Source: Patescibacteria group bacterium (GTDB lineage: Bacteria; Patescibacteriota; Patescibacteriia; SG8-24). Taken from it: 64,000 bases of DNA. The translations under genes and the position numbers were made by a program. Where the stretch lies: positions 6,857-70,856 of the forward strand of contig JAQTNC010000005.1 of NCBI GenBank assembly GCA_028714475.1, in the 5' to 3' direction. Shown here piece by piece: positions 14,991 through 46,428 of this stretch. Below the pieces are notes generated by a model, which did no database searches, was not told the origin of the DNA, and was given only the letters and a program-made list of their open reading frames with translations. Position 1 is the first letter of the stretch. Each line of letters opens with the position of its first letter.

Positions 14991-15018
14991 AAAACCGCCC
15001 CGCAATACTGCGGGGCGG
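14991..15018 (-). terminator. terminator hairpin CCGCCCCGCAATACTGCGGGGCGG followed by UUUU on the minus strand (serves cspA; possibly bidirectional)
   Basis: Perfect stem with a run of A on the + strand immediately 5' (a T-run on the minus strand). It lies 16 bp past the cspA stop. Confidence 0.6.
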
Positions 15019-19080: not shown

Positions 19081-19289
19081 CAGGCCCTCCACTCGGGTCG
19101 GGCCAGAACTATTTTTTCCCGAGCGGACCCGCAATACTGCGGGGGAAGTCGAGGGGCAACCGATTTATCCCGGCGACGCTGCCGCTATCGAGGCGGCCAA
19201 GCCCTTGATTTTTCCCCTGGAATTCGCTATATTTTAAGCATGTTTAACGAACGCCGCAGGAGACTGACCAGGCTTGGCGGCAACGACAA

Positions 19290-25463: not shown

Positions 25464-27629
25464 ATGCAGAGCGCCAGAACCAAGCTTTTGATCGCTTTTC
25501 TGTCGGCCATCGCCGTTTTTCTGGCGGTGGAAGTCGTTTTGTTCATATTTTACGCCCGCGTCGTAGGGCAATATCAGGATGTGACGAGCAACGTGCTCGT
25601 TGAGTACCGGCTGGTCGAGGCGGCTGGCGAGTTGCCGGAAGACTACAACGGTGTCCTCAAGAACCTCAACAGCCTTGAACGACGCCAGAAATATACCAGC
25701 TTGCGCGACGAGATCATCGCCACGCTGGGTACCCTCGACCAGACCATCATTTACGGCGACAGCCGCATCGCCTTCTTGAGCGTGCGCAACACGATGTTGA
25801 GTCTCATCAGCGAATGTGACGCCGGCATCGAGGAGGTCGTGCGCGGCGACTTCACGAAGATGTCGGCCCATTACGACGAGTCCTTGCGTCTGGCGGGGTT
25901 CGTCAGGGAGAGCAGCACCGCCTTGCTGCTCAAGGAGATCGAATACACCAAAAGCCTGCAGCAGGATATCGCCAAGAGCCAGAACGACGTCAGCGCGATG
26001 GCGATGGTGCTGTTCCTGTTTTTGGCGGCGGGCGGCGTGATTTTCTCGGTGGTGTTGGCGCACATGATCGTTTGGCCGGTGACGCGTTTGGCGGTCGTCG
26101 CCAAGTCATTGGCCGCCGGTTCCTTTGACGTCAAGGTCGATGATTGGCTGGCTCGGCGTGATGATGATTACGGGCGGGCTGGCCGAGACTTGGGCGTCGT
26201 GGCGGCGGAACGGAAGCGCACCGTGGAGCGGCTAAAGGAAACGGAGAGCCGGGTGGAAACAGCCAATGCGGAGTTGAAGAATGATGTTCGGCAGTTGAAT
26301 GAACTGGCGACGTCGGCGGCCGAGGCGAATGCCCGGCTGGTGATGCGGACAAGCCACGAGGAATCAGCGGGCCGGATCATCCAGGGGCTCGTGAAGTTGC
26401 CGGACGTGTCGGCAGCCAGCGAGGACGCGTTGGCCGAGATCTGGCGCCTGCTGGGCGCCGACTTGGTTCAGCTCGCGATTTTTTCCGGGGATGAGGTTCG
26501 GGAGATGGCCGTTTGGCCGCCGCTCGGCGAGAGCGAGCGATTGCGCTTGACGTCCGAAGCAGGCGGCTTTGTCGCGTATGTTGCCAAGTCGGAACAGCCA
26601 GTGGTTTCTGACCTGACTGACGAGAAAAGGTTCAGCCTTGATCCGTCGTGGGCGCATCTCGGTTACCATCGCGTCATTGGCGTGGCCGTGCCTGGGGCCG
26701 GTGGCAACGCGATCGGCTTGCTGACGGTCTGCTTTCGCAAGTCGGGTGACGGTGATGGCGTCTTGGTCGGCTTCTTGAAGACAGTCAGCGGCGCGCTCGG
26801 CCTGGCCTTGGATCGCGCCCGGGAGGTCGAGCAGGGTGCTGGTCGTGAGGCCATTCGCGACTGGCTTACGTTGGCCGTCACGCGGGATTTGCGGACGCCG
26901 CTCGCCGCCGTGCATTGGAACCTGCAGGCCGTCATGGAGGGCCGAGCGGGACACCTGGAAAAACAGCCGCTGGAATTCCTGCGCGCGACAGCAGAAACGA
27001 TGGCGATGGTTTATGGGCGGCTGGATGACATGATGACCGCCTTGGATATCGCGGAAGGGCGATTGACGATTGTCGCCGAACCGTTCCGTCCGGAAGACGT
27101 CTGGTCGCCCGTTCAGGAATCCCTCAAGGATCGGTTCGAGGCGAAGCACATCCATCTGGAATACAATCCGCCGCCGGCGCCTTTGGCGACCATCACGGCT
27201 GACCGCACGAAGACGCAAGCGGTCATGAGCAAGCTGCTCATGAATGCGCTTTCCGGCTCGCTTCCGGGCGGCACGGTTCGCGTGCGTTTGGCGCTTGAGA
27301 AAGAACGTTTCCGTTTTGAGGTGAGCGATGACGGCGTCGGTATTCCCCGCGCCGACCAAGCGGGAATTTTCCGGCTGCTCCGGCCCGGGCCAAACGCCAC
27401 CCATGAGCCGGACGCCGCCGGGTTGGAACTGTTCATCGTCAAGAGCCTCATCGAGCGACAGGGCGGCAGCGTCGGTTTCCGCAGCGAAGAGGCGCGCGGC
27501 AGCGTTTTCTGGTTTGAATTGCCGCTCGCGTACGACAAAGCCGGCGAGGCTGGCAAGAGTCCGGCCAAAACCGCCAAAGGAGAAGAACCGGGCGCCACTG
27601 GATTACGTGACGGCCAACGAACCCCCTAA
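25464..27629 (+). CDS. sensor histidine kinase (TM, HAMP, GAF-like, HisKA, HATPase_c)
   Basis: TM helix and HAMP (MIVWPVTRLAVVAKSLAAGSFDVKV). H-box region LAVTRDLRTPLAAVHWNL. HATPase ending GLELFIVKSLIERQGGSVGFRSEEARGSVFWFELP. Start chosen at Met25 of the track ORF. Confidence 0.8.
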   Translation: MQSARTKLLIAFLSAIAVFLAVEVVLFIFYARVVGQYQDVTSNVLVEYRLVEAAGELPEDYNGVLKNLNSLERRQKYTSLRDEIIATLGTLDQTIIYGDSRIAFLSVRNTMLSLISECDAGIEEVVRGDFTKMSAHYDESLRLAGFVRESSTALLLKEIEYTKSLQQDIAKSQNDVSAMAMVLFLFLAAGGVIFSVVLAHMIVWPVTRLAVVAKSLAAGSFDVKVDDWLARRDDDYGRAGRDLGVVAAERKRTVERLKETESRVETANAELKNDVRQLNELATSAAEANARLVMRTSHEESAGRIIQGLVKLPDVSAASEDALAEIWRLLGADLVQLAIFSGDEVREMAVWPPLGESERLRLTSEAGGFVAYVAKSEQPVVSDLTDEKRFSLDPSWAHLGYHRVIGVAVPGAGGNAIGLLTVCFRKSGDGDGVLVGFLKTVSGALGLALDRAREVEQGAGREAIRDWLTLAVTRDLRTPLAAVHWNLQAVMEGRAGHLEKQPLEFLRATAETMAMVYGRLDDMMTALDIAEGRLTIVAEPFRPEDVWSPVQESLKDRFEAKHIHLEYNPPPAPLATITADRTKTQAVMSKLLMNALSGSLPGGTVRVRLALEKERFRFEVSDDGVGIPRADQAGIFRLLRPGPNATHEPDAAGLELFIVKSLIERQGGSVGFRSEEARGSVFWFELPLAYDKAGEAGKSPAKTAKGEEPGATGLRDGQRTP

Positions 27630-42684: not shown

Positions 42685-42981
42685 ATGACCCAACCCATCC
42701 AACCCCAGCAAAATCAGCTTCAGATAAAGGCTGACGACAAGATCCTCCAAGGCGTCTATTCGAACGCGATGCAGGTTCAGCACTCCAAGGAGGAATTCGT
42801 GATAGACTTCATGAACCTGTTCCCGCCGGCGGGGACGCTGAATGCGCGGGTCATTGTTTCGCCGGGACACCTCAAGCGGATGATCGCCGCGCTCGCCGAG
42901 AACCTCGCGAAGTACGAAGGGAACTTCGGCAAGATCGACACGGCGCAGGAACCGGCGGAGATCGGCTTCGCGGCGAAATAG
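42685..42981 (+). CDS. DUF3467 family protein
   Basis: 98 aa. Pattern IKADDKILQGVYSNAMQVQHSKEEFVIDFMNLFPP...ARVIVSPGHLKRMIAALAENLAKYEGNFG matches the DUF3467 consensus as remembered. Confidence 0.5.
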   Translation: MTQPIQPQQNQLQIKADDKILQGVYSNAMQVQHSKEEFVIDFMNLFPPAGTLNARVIVSPGHLKRMIAALAENLAKYEGNFGKIDTAQEPAEIGFAAK

Positions 42982-43060
42982 CCACAATAATATTCCCCGA
43001 GCGGAGCCCTGCACCGGAGCGGAGCGACTGGTGCGGGGCGGAGTCGAGGGGGGCTTCCTT

Positions 43061-43753
43061 ATGGGCTTGATGGAAAATTACCAGCAATCGGAAAGTCCGA
43101 AAGCAAAAAGGGGAATGCCAAAGGGCGTCAAAGCGGCGCTCCTGTTGGGCGCGCTCGCCGCGATCGCGCTGGCCTACGTTTACGGCTACGGACAGTTGAC
43201 CAAGCGGTTGCAGACATCAAAGCCGCCCGCCGAGGCCAACCAACCGAACCAACAGACCGACAATGAATTGAAGGCGCAGACCATCATCTATGTCGGCGCG
43301 GTGGCGGATACGGTCGCGCCGACCATCCGCGACCTGTACGACTTCGGCATGAAGATTCAGAACGCCCATGAACTCAAGGACACAGCCACGGCCGAGGACA
43401 TGGCGAAGCTCGTCAGGAGAACCTGCACCACCGCCCTGAACGCGGATGTCGCCGCCCAACTGGCCATGGTTCAGAGCCAGCCGGTCAGCGTCACGCGCTT
43501 TTCCGCCACCACCGCCAAGCTGACCACGGCTATCGGGAACTTCCAAAAGTTCTGCGCCAACGCCGCGCTGACGTCCTACGACGCCGACGTCGTGAACCTC
43601 GGCAAGGACGAATACCTGCCCTACGTCGCATCGCTAATTGAAGTCGGCACCACCCTCGACACCGACTATGCGGCTCTCACCGCCGCCACGCCGAAGATAG
43701 ATTGGAAGGACGTTGAGCCGTGGTACGAAAACGCGTCGCGGTTGATGAAATAA
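43061..43753 (+). CDS. hypothetical membrane-anchored protein
   Basis: About 230 aa with an N-terminal anchor AALLLGALAAIALAYVYGY and a helical Ala/Thr-rich body. Preceded by the TAATATTCCCCGAGCGGAG...GAGTCGAGGGG repeat module. Confidence 0.4.
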   Translation: MGLMENYQQSESPKAKRGMPKGVKAALLLGALAAIALAYVYGYGQLTKRLQTSKPPAEANQPNQQTDNELKAQTIIYVGAVADTVAPTIRDLYDFGMKIQNAHELKDTATAEDMAKLVRRTCTTALNADVAAQLAMVQSQPVSVTRFSATTAKLTTAIGNFQKFCANAALTSYDADVVNLGKDEYLPYVASLIEVGTTLDTDYAALTAATPKIDWKDVEPWYENASRLMK

Positions 43754-43767
43754 GTAATTCGGAAAAA

Positions 43768-43803
43768 CAGGAACCGGCGGAAATCGGCTTCGCCGCTAAG
43801 TAA
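43768..43803 (+). pseudogene. orphan duplicate of the DUF3467 gene 3' end (encodes QEPAEIGFAAK plus stop) with no upstream start
   Basis: CAGGAACCGGCGGAAATCGGCTTCGCCGCTAAGTAA at 43768-43803 versus CAGGAACCGGCGGAGATCGGCTTCGCGGCGAAATAG at 42946-42981. There are 5 differences, all synonymous. The upstream frame hits a stop at about 43714. Confidence 0.5.
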
Positions 43804-43870
43804 AGTTTGTCCTGCACGTGGATTCCCGCTTTCGCGGGAATGACATGATCGGGAAGCGCGTTCAAATTCC

Positions 43871-44983: not shown

Positions 44984-45000
44984 TCATGAATCATAGAAAG

Positions 45001-45032
45001 ACCGCCCCGCAGTACTGCGGGGCGGTTTTGAT
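45001..45032 (+). terminator. rho-independent terminator ACCGCCCCGCAGTACTGCGGGGCGGT plus TTTT after dnaJ
   Basis: Perfect stem with a T-run 18 bp after the dnaJ stop. The same CCCCGCAGTACTGCGGGG core is reused at 46403-46428 and (with AATACTG) at 14995-15018. Confidence 0.7.
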
Positions 45033-45277
45033 TTGGTGTGACAGCCTTTAGTCACCGAACACAAATATTGTTCAGTGATTGAGCTTAACATTTCTGGATC
45101 CCCGCTGCTGCGGGGATGGTGAAAATGTTTATGTATTCTTACCACCCCCGCGGAGGCGGGGTCCAGAAACAAGTGTGACATTCATTTATCAGAAACGGTA
45201 CTTGCGTCGAAACCACTCCAATGTTAACCTCGCGCCCTAATTATCAAACTACCTGCCTTGAAGCACTCTAACTAACC

Positions 45278-45651
45278 TTTACCACCCCCGCGGAAGCGGG
45301 GGTCAAGACATGCGGTGGCAAAAATACAGTCGCTATTTCGTCTATATCCTAGCCAGTGGAAAAAACGGCACCCTGTATGTTGGCGTTACGTTGAATCTGG
45401 CGAAGCGGGTGGAGGACCACAAGGCGGGCGCCATCCCGGGCTTTACTGCCAAATACAATGTAAAGCAACTAGTCTATTTTGAAATAGTCGATAATTTCGA
45501 TGCCGCTCTTGCCCGCGAGAAGGCCATCAAAAAATGGAATCGAGCGTGGAAAAATAGAGCTGATTGAGAAAGGGAATCCGTGGTGGAATGACTTGACCAA
45601 CACGGTCGAGTGAGTCTTTCTGGACCCCCGCTTTCGCGGGGGTGGTAAGAG
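45278..45651. mobile_element. MITE-like unit: GIY-YIG nuclease gene bracketed by about 30-bp inverted repeats (45278-45308 and 45620-45651); an additional solo copy of the repeat lies at 45138-45166
   Basis: CTTTACCACCCCCGCGGAAGCGGGGGTCAAG (45278) and the reverse complement of CTGGACCCCCGCTTTCGCGGGGGTGGTAAGAG (45620) are near-identical. The solo copy CTTACCACCCCCGCGGAGGCGGGGTCCAG lies 140 bp upstream. Confidence 0.5.
45310..45567 (+). CDS. GIY-YIG nuclease family protein (YhbQ/UPF0213-like single-domain)
   Basis: 85 aa: YFVYILASGKNGTLYVGVTLNLAKRVEDHKAG...KQLVYFEIVDNFDAALAREKAIKKWNRAWK. GIY...YVG motif, Arg, and the Glu in EIV; typical of the 85-100 aa family. Confidence 0.8.
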   Translation: MRWQKYSRYFVYILASGKNGTLYVGVTLNLAKRVEDHKAGAIPGFTAKYNVKQLVYFEIVDNFDAALAREKAIKKWNRAWKNRAD

Positions 45652-45797
45652 TTTTAGATGACAATATTCAAGTGCCAGGGGGTCTTCCATTTGTCCCTCC
45701 ACCTAGCGAAATGCTATAATTACGATATCCACAGGCGAGCCCCGCCTGTCAGACAGGGCAAAAGCCCCAAGCTAACCTCGGTTCGCCGAATACCGCC

Positions 45798-46402: not shown

Positions 46403-46428
46403 CCCCCGCAGTACTGCGGGGGTTTTTG
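46403..46428 (+). terminator. rho-independent terminator CCCCCGCAGTACTGCGGGGG plus TTTTT
   Basis: Perfect 9-bp stem and T-run 24 bp after the 45798..46379 gene. Confidence 0.7.

Follow-up and report, generated by a model that had tools for sequence, protein, structure and literature searches.

A probable Ssn/SRM cassette, with a frameshifted GIY-YIG nuclease gene between inverted hairpin repeats, in the chaperone operon of a Patescibacteria genome

The chaperone operon of a Patescibacteria group bacterium (GenBank assembly GCA_028714475.1, contig JAQTNC010000005.1) harbors a small gene for a GIY-YIG nuclease, which we refer to as ssn in the following. The gene is intergenic, lying between dnaJ and the gene of a 193-residue membrane protein, and is flanked on either side by a hairpin repeat, with the two copies in inverted orientation. 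The surrounding stretch of 64,000 nucleotides, hereafter the window, is the basis of all repeat counts given for this genome. An earlier inspection of its letters without database searches (the sequence-only reading) had noted an open reading frame (ORF) of 85 codons between two inverted repeats and proposed a small mobile or homing cassette. Based on the analyses described here, we consider it likely, with a probability of roughly 0.85, that the locus is a cassette of the Ssn/SRM type, i.e. a gene for a single-domain GIY-YIG nuclease of about 100 residues, bracketed in inverted orientation by what would be its cognate hairpin repeat.

The Ssn proteins (cd10448) are single-domain GIY-YIG proteins, and the best-studied among them, SsnA of Neisseria meningitidis, comprises 94 residues (Chenal et al., 2025, Nat Commun 16:2388, PMC11893778). 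Binding of SsnA to a hairpin repeat, NTS (CGTCATTCCCGCGMAVGCGGGAATCYRG), is limited to single-stranded DNA and to the forward strand, and the enzyme cuts a few nucleotides 5' of the repeat. Binding is determined mainly by the C just 3' of the palindrome, and cleavage mainly by the three nucleotides 5' of it. The mutations Y6A, Y17A and E64A each end cutting; activity has been demonstrated for four members of the family, and these enzymes have no activity on duplex DNA or RNA (Chenal et al., 2025). The motif SRM is a generalized form of the Neisseria repeat. In an association analysis that drew on RefSeq reference and representative genomes, at least one SRM was found near 71% of the homologs, and SRMs on both sides in 42%. 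In N. meningitidis, the system lowers transformation by NTS-containing DNA, and deletion of ssnA raised such transformation about five-fold (Chenal et al., 2025). The same authors likened NTS-ssnA-NTS to an insertion sequence, to IS200/IS605 and to the repetitive extragenic palindromic (REP)/RAYT system, as a hypothesis and with mobility not demonstrated, and they already anticipated a variant motif, NTSvar. A use of the family as a toolbox for the sequence-specific cutting of single-stranded DNA has been proposed. The paper of Chenal et al. (2025) contains none of the words REPIN, MITE and doublet, and it mentions neither empty sites nor the ACC-type repeats described below; within the library searched, there was no later paper on the topic. 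What is new in this locus is another member of this already published system: it is an ordinary representative of a family described in 2025, and probably a dead copy.

The hairpin repeats of the window

The ORF is enclosed by a 35-nt inverted repeat, the arms of which (45274-45308 and 45619-45653) are 89% complementary and separated by 310 nt, and its ATG at 45310 directly adjoins the end of the left arm. The 25-mer TACCACCCCCGCGGAAGCGGGGGTC, searched for with up to three mismatches, matches at 45140 (+), 45280 (+) and 45623 (-), and in none of 100 shuffled sequences. A covariance model built from 60 such repeats yields exactly five copies in the 64 kb (E 1e-10 to 3e-5), all within 1.8 kb of the ssn gene; its training set included three of the five, the copies at 43816 and 45138 not being among them. 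The next match (E 0.35) is one of the same five hairpins on the opposite strand. On their NTS-forward strand, four of the five copies fold as single-stranded DNA into an 8-bp stem with a 4-nt loop (-10.3 to -10.8 kcal/mol).

We refer to the two repeats next to the gene as L and R, and to the extra left-type and right-type copies upstream of them as L' and R' (Table 1). In calling the repeats around the gene near-identical and inverted, the sequence-only reading was correct, and the related hairpins it had listed are also real, since the covariance model assigns both (43816-43847 and 45092-45123) to the same family. The third, solo copy that it placed 140 bp upstream exists as well (45138), but it is not isolated: L' and R' are an oppositely oriented pair and face each other across 14 nt. 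Scanned against Rfam at gathering thresholds, the window as a whole yields no match. A T run follows none of the five repeats, and a terminator scan flags the terminator of dnaJ and none of the repeats.

ORF lists and gene callers produce spurious small ORFs over the SRMs, such as 45469-45702 (-), 45527-45664 (-) and 43677-43865 (-) in the window. In one of the related loci (L086, positions 298-555), an 85-residue 'gene' lies wholly over four repeats. The peptides PAKAGI/V, PRKRGS and RFRGND recur in such ORFs, and their calling across the repeats is explained by the Ssn/SRM reading.

Table 1. Features of the ssn locus and its immediate surroundings (window coordinates)
Feature	Position	Strand	Description	Scores and remarks
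ssn gene, single-domain GIY-YIG nuclease	45310-45613	+	annotated ORF 45310-45567 (85 residues); frame-corrected product 100 residues	
Left SRM hairpin (L)	45278-45309	+	TTTACC-ACCCCCGC-GGAA-GCGGGGGT-CAAGAC; NTS-forward on top strand; abuts the ATG	35.8 bits, E 1e-7; fold -10.8 kcal/mol, z -3.6
Right SRM hairpin (R)	45618-45649	-	CTTACC-ACCCCCGC-GAAA-GCGGGGGT-CCAGAA; NTS-forward on bottom strand; 4 nt past the corrected stop	43.4 bits, E 8e-10; fold -10.8 kcal/mol, z -4.1
Extra left-type SRM (L')	45138-45168	+	degraded, 6-bp stem; 140 nt upstream of L	3 mismatches; 27 bits, E 3e-5; fold -7.9 kcal/mol
Extra right-type SRM (R')	45092-45123	-	TTCACC-ATCCCCGC-AGCA-GCGGGGAT-CCAGAA on bottom strand	33.9 bits, E 3.5e-7; fold -10.6 kcal/mol, z -5.9
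Solo canonical GTC-type SRM	43816-43847	-	TGTCATTCCCGCGAAAGCGGGAATCCAC on bottom strand; 25 nt upstream of the dnaJ start codon	46.1 bits, E 1e-10
Intrinsic terminator of dnaJ	44998-45029	+	14-bp stem, then T run; family CCCCGCARTACTGCGGGG	left limit of the inserted segment; does not belong to the cassette system
Promoter-like site of the 193-residue membrane-protein gene	45691-45720	+	TTGTCC, 18-nt spacer, TG-TATAAT; 10/12 matches	right limit of the inserted segment; does not belong to the cassette system

The nuclease, its family and its frameshift

The 85-residue product matches a single Pfam family, the GIY-YIG domain PF01541 (E 9.5e-17, residues 9-82), in agreement with the sequence-only reading. 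We found 5147 homologs in the databases, spread over many phyla, mostly 94-100 residues long (range 92-108) and 60-70% identical. Aligned over 85 residues with the 94-residue Ssn homolog of N. gonorrhoeae, it shows 53% identity and no gaps (BLASTP E 1e-34), and a tblastn comparison with the gonococcal replicon NZ_CP119140.1 gives an E-value of 2e-24, which passes the published homology criterion of E < 1e-10; this replicon, the source of the 94-residue protein, is a chromosome of 2.17 Mb that PLSDB lists as a plasmid. The catalytic residues Y6, Y17 and E64 correspond in this alignment to Y12, Y23 and E70 of the window protein, and these positions are invariant in 33 sequences. NCBIfam contains no specific model for the protein; its sole match there, to a group I intron endonuclease model, is sub-threshold (19.6 bits vs a cut-off of 56). 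The closest solved folds in the Protein Data Bank (PDB) are the UPF0213/YhbQ protein BH0048 (1zg2) and Slx1, likewise small URI-type GIY-YIG domains. Their sequence similarity to the window protein is weak (E 8e-4), they have no known association with hairpin repeats, and Slx1, which is structure-specific, needs Slx4 and a RING domain. A solved Ssn structure was found in the PDB neither by sequence nor by fold search.

The proposal of a homing unit calls for a comparison with the classical free-standing GIY-YIG homing endonucleases of the I-TevI type, which cut a double-stranded target and spread by repair-mediated copying. The GIY-YIG catalytic domain and the weak, sub-threshold match to the intron endonuclease model would fit such an enzyme, but the likeness is confined to the catalytic fold. 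I-TevI and its kin possess a linker and a DNA-binding domain, make double-stranded cuts, and their genes are found in introns or stand free in phages. The locus in the window shares none of these features: according to Pfam and AlphaFold, the window protein is a single domain of 100 residues without a DNA-binding module, it has no intron, intein or phage context, a phage collection contained no ssn homolog, and characterized family members do not cut double-stranded DNA (Chenal et al., 2025). We therefore rejected the homing endonuclease as highly improbable, and with it this part of the sequence-only reading. Recognizing the locus as ssn also keeps it from being annotated as a homing endonuclease or 'excinuclease ABC subunit C'.

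While the sequence-only reading identified the domain correctly, the length of 85 residues that it gave is that of a truncated protein. A 1-nt insertion in the A5 run at 45550-45554 shifts the frame, and past this run the invariant C-terminus (WKIELIEKGNPWWNDL) is found in the +1 frame. The corrected gene stops at the TGA at 45611-45613, and tblastn breaks it in two (frame 1, 45310-45552; frame 2, 45551-45610). In an alignment of 33 relatives, the segment W-K-I-E-L-I-E-x-x-N-P-x-W-x-D-L is invariant or nearly so, and the corrected C-terminus keeps the residues W80, K81, E86, N89, P90, W92, D94 and L95, which are invariant when compared with 32 homologs. The frameshift takes away the C-terminal 19 residues, six of the invariant ones included. 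AlphaFold models the corrected protein as one compact domain (predicted local distance difference test 89.8) with confident helices at residues 78-88 and 95-98, and it is this helical part that is lost. An intact homolog of 100 residues (P0002, 73% identical) has no break at this site, and the same truncated ORF is present in assemblies from two separate runs, SRR22315508 and SRR22315509. The window contains no second ssn copy besides the frameshifted one. Because the frameshift removes the invariant C-terminus, the local copy is probably inactive and decaying.

This bears on the possibility that the cassette has a working function for its host, for instance in the restriction of incoming single-stranded DNA during natural transformation. 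The roughly five-fold rise in transformation by NTS-containing DNA upon deletion of ssnA in N. meningitidis (Chenal et al., 2025) speaks for such a role, as does the placement of the cassette, harmless for its neighbors, between a terminator and a promoter. These points are opposed by the frameshift with its loss of six invariant residues, by the lack of a promoter-like site between the upstream repeats and the ATG of ssn, and by the repeats themselves, as the five copies in 64 kb all lie by the gene and do not constitute a genome-wide target set. We regard a host function at this locus as unlikely.

Association with the repeat across relatives, and the ACC variant

To place the window locus in the context of its family, we compared it with 80 related loci from Alpha-, Beta-, Gamma- and Deltaproteobacteria, Planctomycetes, Omnitrophota, Bacteroidota, Ignavibacteria, Acidobacteria and several Patescibacteria. 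By eye, GTCATTCCCGCGAAAGCGGGAATCCAG recurs immediately before the gene, and its reverse complement immediately after it. For counting, 150 nt on each side of the gene were searched in the 75 usable loci. The published SRM pattern occurs upstream in forward orientation in 29 of them and downstream in reverse orientation in 20, with 0.004 copies expected by chance per flank. This pattern is too strict for the window locus, for long-loop variants and for flanks other than GTC. A structure-based finder detects the repeat upstream in 51 of the 75 loci, downstream in 45 and on both sides in 34, at a chance expectation of 0.16; as its background is high (2.2 hits per kb), we only used the orientation-specific enrichment near the gene. 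The exact Neisseria-type NTS is found upstream in 14 loci. The stems covary (variants CCCGC, CCCGG, CCTGC and CCCAC), with compensatory changes in four of eight pairs (29 cells), in a set that was chosen for perfect stems and in which pairing is 100% by construction.

The correspondence with the published system comprises a single GIY-YIG domain of about 94-100 residues with the same catalytic Tyr, Tyr and Glu; a gene with an oriented hairpin on either side, each made up of an 8-bp stem and a 4-nt loop and followed by C-CAG; and one canonical copy in the window (43816-43847) that fits the published SRM pattern. The window differs in its ACC rather than GTC flanks, its frameshifted gene and its five visible repeats in 64 kb, compared with hundreds in the published case. 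Moreover, its host is a Patescibacteria metagenome-assembled genome (MAG) and thus outside the RefSeq set of the published association analysis, and its order is L-gene-R, as opposed to R-gene-L in N. gonorrhoeae. In the gonococcal locus (L137, NZ_CP119140.1, 1881872-1882941), a reverse repeat lies upstream of ssnA and a forward repeat just past its stop codon, which is the opposite of the order in most loci.

An alternative view of the hairpins is that they are ordinary REP elements or terminators beside an unrelated small nuclease gene. They are indeed GC-rich and intergenic, the right copy follows a stop codon, and elsewhere the repeat is found at many loci without the gene, both in our metagenome scan (see below) and in the published survey (Chenal et al., 2025). 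The gene-repeat association, however, is orientation-specific, extends over dozens of loci in many phyla and exceeds the background about 100-fold. Furthermore, the repeats lack T runs and were not flagged as terminators, the terminators of this genome are formed by a different conserved hairpin (CCCCGCARTACTGCGGGG, with four copies in the window at 14999, 19128, 45006 and 46405), and cleavage at the repeat has been demonstrated for members of the family (Chenal et al., 2025). The sequence-only reading had itself named ordinary REP terminators without association with the ORF as the finding that would speak against it; the absence of T runs and the orientation-specific association in the 75 loci point the other way. 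Taken together, the association counts, the terminator scan and the published biochemistry refute this view, to which we assign next to no probability.

It is also conceivable that the hairpins act in the RNA, as structures of the 5' and 3' untranslated regions through which the translation of the nuclease mRNA or its stability is controlled. Such a role would fit the position of the left hairpin, which extends up to the ATG and the 3' arm of which (GGGGG) might mask a ribosome-binding site; the loop reads GGAA or GAAA on the sense strand. Against this, there is no match in Rfam, the spacing of hairpin and start codon ranges from 1 to 113 nt among loci, SsnA shows no binding to the RNA form (Chenal et al., 2025), and the same repeat is common far from any gene. 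An RNA role thus appears very improbable, and we return to the Ssn/SRM cassette, in which the hairpins would be recognized as single-stranded DNA.

Within this family, the repeats of the window are distinguished by the trinucleotide 5' of the stem. The gene-flanking copies read TTACC-ACCCCCGC, whereas the family reads xGTC-ATTCCCGC: in 68 gene-flanking repeats of related loci, this position is occupied by GTC in 57 cases, CTC in five, GTT in two and ACC in none. Accordingly, only the solo copy (43818-43845) among the five SRMs matches the published pattern HGTCWY...RNCYNB; the three ACC-type copies and the copy at 45092 fail it, and two further matches to the expression, at 25616 and 61012, are not SRM copies. 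ACC-type repeats are also found with the two nearest homologs (L083, AACC-ACCCCCGC; L087, TACC-ACCCCCGC). Because ACC occupies the positions that govern cleavage in the published system (Chenal et al., 2025) and is common to the two nearest homologs, its presence suggests that these repeats mark a subclade with shifted cleavage specificity. Such repeats escape the published SRM pattern, which matters for the proposed toolbox of single-strand DNA cutters.

Insertion into the chaperone operon and possible mobility

The five-element block from R' (45092) to R (45649) falls into the interval between the dnaJ terminator and the TG-TATAAT promoter of the next gene. We compared this site with six relatives, the DnaJ proteins of which are 59-62% identical to that of the window (62% for the nearest DnaJ in the databases) and the 193-residue proteins 64-77%. 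The order DUF3467-dnaJ-193-residue protein and the next downstream genes are kept in all six, and the upstream genes hrcA-grpE-dnaK are visible in the three whose sequence reaches that far. In all six, the gap between dnaJ and the membrane-protein gene measures 62-174 nt, compared with 814 nt in the window, and holds only a terminator and a TGGTATAAT promoter, with neither ssn nor an SRM. Of what the sequence-only reading had suggested looking for, empty sites are seen in six of six syntenic relatives, at the distance given by their DnaJ identities, and further repeat copies in the window (five in all) and, as gene-less pairs, in metagenomes. Six independent losses would be less parsimonious than one gain here. 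We thus propose that the cassette and the two extra repeats may have entered the interval between the dnaJ terminator and the downstream promoter as an insertion of about 650 bp, and that the ssn gene would subsequently have gained the 1-nt frameshift that removes the C-terminal 19 residues and now be decaying. Because L and R are NTS-forward on opposite strands, an active enzyme would be predicted to cut just outside the cassette, near 45275 on the top strand and near 45652 on the bottom strand.

Several points weigh against this account and against the assignment to Ssn/SRM. The homology comparison was made with the N. gonorrhoeae protein, taken as the SsnA ortholog, and not with the assayed protein of N. 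meningitidis, and the assignment of the window protein and of the ACC-type repeats to Ssn function is based on sequence. The frameshift in the A5 run could be an assembly or sequencing error in a homopolymer that the assemblies share, or it could be bypassed by +1 slippage on AAA-A. Lastly, the relatives with empty sites are distant, so that gain here is not formally separable from repeated loss elsewhere.

The neighboring gap, between the DUF3467 gene and dnaJ, is occupied differently in different relatives. It contains no repeat in L084, L085, L138 and L139, where the fetched sequence covers it, and L140 has one forward repeat (19-50) within a gene called just upstream of dnaJ. In L087, a seventh relative besides the six with the empty site, the gap harbors an ACC-type L-ssn-R cassette, and in L086 one L and three tandem R without the gene. 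The window has the solo SRM at 43816-43847, which corresponds in position and orientation to the right repeat of the L087 cassette. The R copies of L086 (430-559) are three perfect tandem copies with a period of 49 nt, each made up of a canonical reverse SRM and a spacer, upstream of dnaJ; this array shows that the repeats can undergo local tandem amplification.

A scan of metagenomes for the ACC-type core retrieved 49 loci (L088-L136), many of them from the sample Ga0302315. Only three encode an Ssn-like protein, and about 40 are gene-less L-R doublets, in which a forward repeat is followed by a spacer of 10-110 nt and a reverse repeat, with mutually unrelated flanks. All adjacent pairs but one have this forward-then-reverse order, the same geometry as around the gene, and the spacers often contain smaller hairpins and a TTTATAAA center. 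Most of these ACC-type repeats are part of elements about 100 bp long, which consist of ACCACCCCCGCGAAGGCGGGGGTCTGGYCC, two small GC hairpins around TTTATAAA, and CCGGATCCCCGCCTTCGCGGGGATGG (e.g. L100, 450-555; L125, 1911-2015). The 3' flank of the doublets is CTGG, compared with the usual CCAG, and in several of them the inverted complementarity extends a few bases past the repeats.

This abundance of doublets raises the possibility that the cassette is, or was, a selfish mobile element that spreads by means of its own nuclease, in the manner of insertion sequences or REPIN/RAYT, with L-ssn-R as the autonomous and the doublets as the non-autonomous form. Such a scenario is compatible with the Ssn/SRM assignment. 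It would account for the empty site in six of six syntenic relatives, for the cassette in the neighboring gap of L087 together with the repeats in that gap in L086 and in the window, for the roughly 40 doublets in unrelated flanks, and for the 60-70% identity across phyla, which fits horizontal transfer. Likewise, two paralogous cassettes in one other MAG are about 80% identical to each other, and this similarity reaches as far as the outer edge of the left repeat, upstream of which nothing convincing is shared. On the other hand, we detected no target-site duplication at the window cassette, and the flank repeats of 38 gene-less doublets did not exceed a re-paired control, in an analysis in which a few right ends were mis-assigned to the inner hairpin. 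The sole gene copy of the window is frameshifted, no copies were found in the phage collection, and the 31 hits in a plasmid collection lie without exception on large replicons, including chromosomes, with 30 typed as non-mobilizable. Moreover, the Neisseria repeats have the opposite orientation around the gene, so that L-gene-R is not universal. Considering both sides, we see a serious possibility here, to which we would nevertheless give rather less than even odds.

The chemistry of the enzyme is a further point against this scenario. GIY-YIG nucleases hydrolyze DNA, and neither covalent intermediates nor strand transfer are known for them. Because these enzymes are hydrolytic, spread of the cassette would rely on host repair or recombination. 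Given how common gene-less doublets of the ACC-type repeat are in metagenomes, mobility of the cassette is plausible but unproven. The mobile part of the sequence-only proposal fares better than its homing part, given that the nuclease-hairpin unit is found family-wide and that the locus is an insertion relative to six syntenic relatives, whereas the single domain and the restriction of Ssn family members to single-stranded DNA speak against homing.

Known mobile systems offer several partial parallels. The REP/RAYT or REPIN-RAYT systems (Nunvar 2010; Ton-Hoang 2012; Bertels and Rainey) also feature a small nuclease gene between inverted hairpin repeats, and a repeat that is dispersed as gene-less inverted doublets and recognized as a single-stranded DNA hairpin; their enzyme, however, belongs to the HUH/Y1 tyrosine transposases and works through a covalent intermediate, unlike the window protein as a hydrolytic GIY-YIG nuclease, for which strand transfer is not known. 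In IS200/IS605 elements, TnpA recognizes subterminal hairpins in single-stranded DNA and cleaves a short distance 5' of the hairpin, but both end hairpins are on one strand, the chemistry is that of a Y1 transposase, and insertion occurs 3' of a defined tetra- or pentanucleotide. Finally, miniature inverted-repeat transposable elements (MITEs), such as the Correia elements of Neisseria, are short, gene-less and scattered over intergenic regions with terminal inverted repeats, yet they come with target-site duplications and a cognate DDE transposase. The label 'MITE-like' in the sequence-only reading is apt insofar as gene-less inverted doublets of the same repeat type exist, but not as regards the missing target-site duplication.

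From these parallels, we tentatively derive a more specific proposal, about the correctness of which we remain doubtful: SRM-ssn-SRM could represent a class of mobile elements in which a GIY-YIG single-strand nuclease replaces the transposase, and the L-R doublets could be miniature forms derived from it, so that the whole would parallel REPIN/RAYT with a GIY-YIG enzyme. The chaperone operon would then provide a natural series of empty site, doublet, cassette and solo repeat, and this series, together with the abundant doublets, offers a concrete way to test mobility.

Three further features of the operon and its surroundings deserve mention. First, between the DUF3467 gene and dnaJ, the window contains an 822-bp segment (42946-43802) with a 240-residue ORF (43031-43753) that has no Pfam match. 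Direct repeats of 35 nt that correspond to the 3' end of the DUF3467 gene (42946-42980 and 43768-43802, 89% identical) enclose the segment, and nothing comparable is present in those relatives whose fetched sequence spans the gap. The segment has the appearance of a second insertion, unrelated to the cassette and with target duplication, and it adjoins the solo SRM. Second, the four hairpins of the terminator type in the window (14999-15014, 19128-19143, 45006-45021 and 46405-46420) share the core CCCCGCA(A/G)TACTGCGGGG. A T run follows the copy at 45006, which belongs to the dnaJ terminator, and the copy at 46405, just past the end of the 193-residue protein gene; the hairpin of the terminators thereby seems to be a conserved repeat of this genome in its own right. 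Third, a short motif, (A/G)TGTTAACCTCGC, is located between the upstream R' and the left repeat both in the window (45222-45236) and at the locus of the closest intact homolog (L083, 1251-1265); it could be a promoter element or a part of the cassette.

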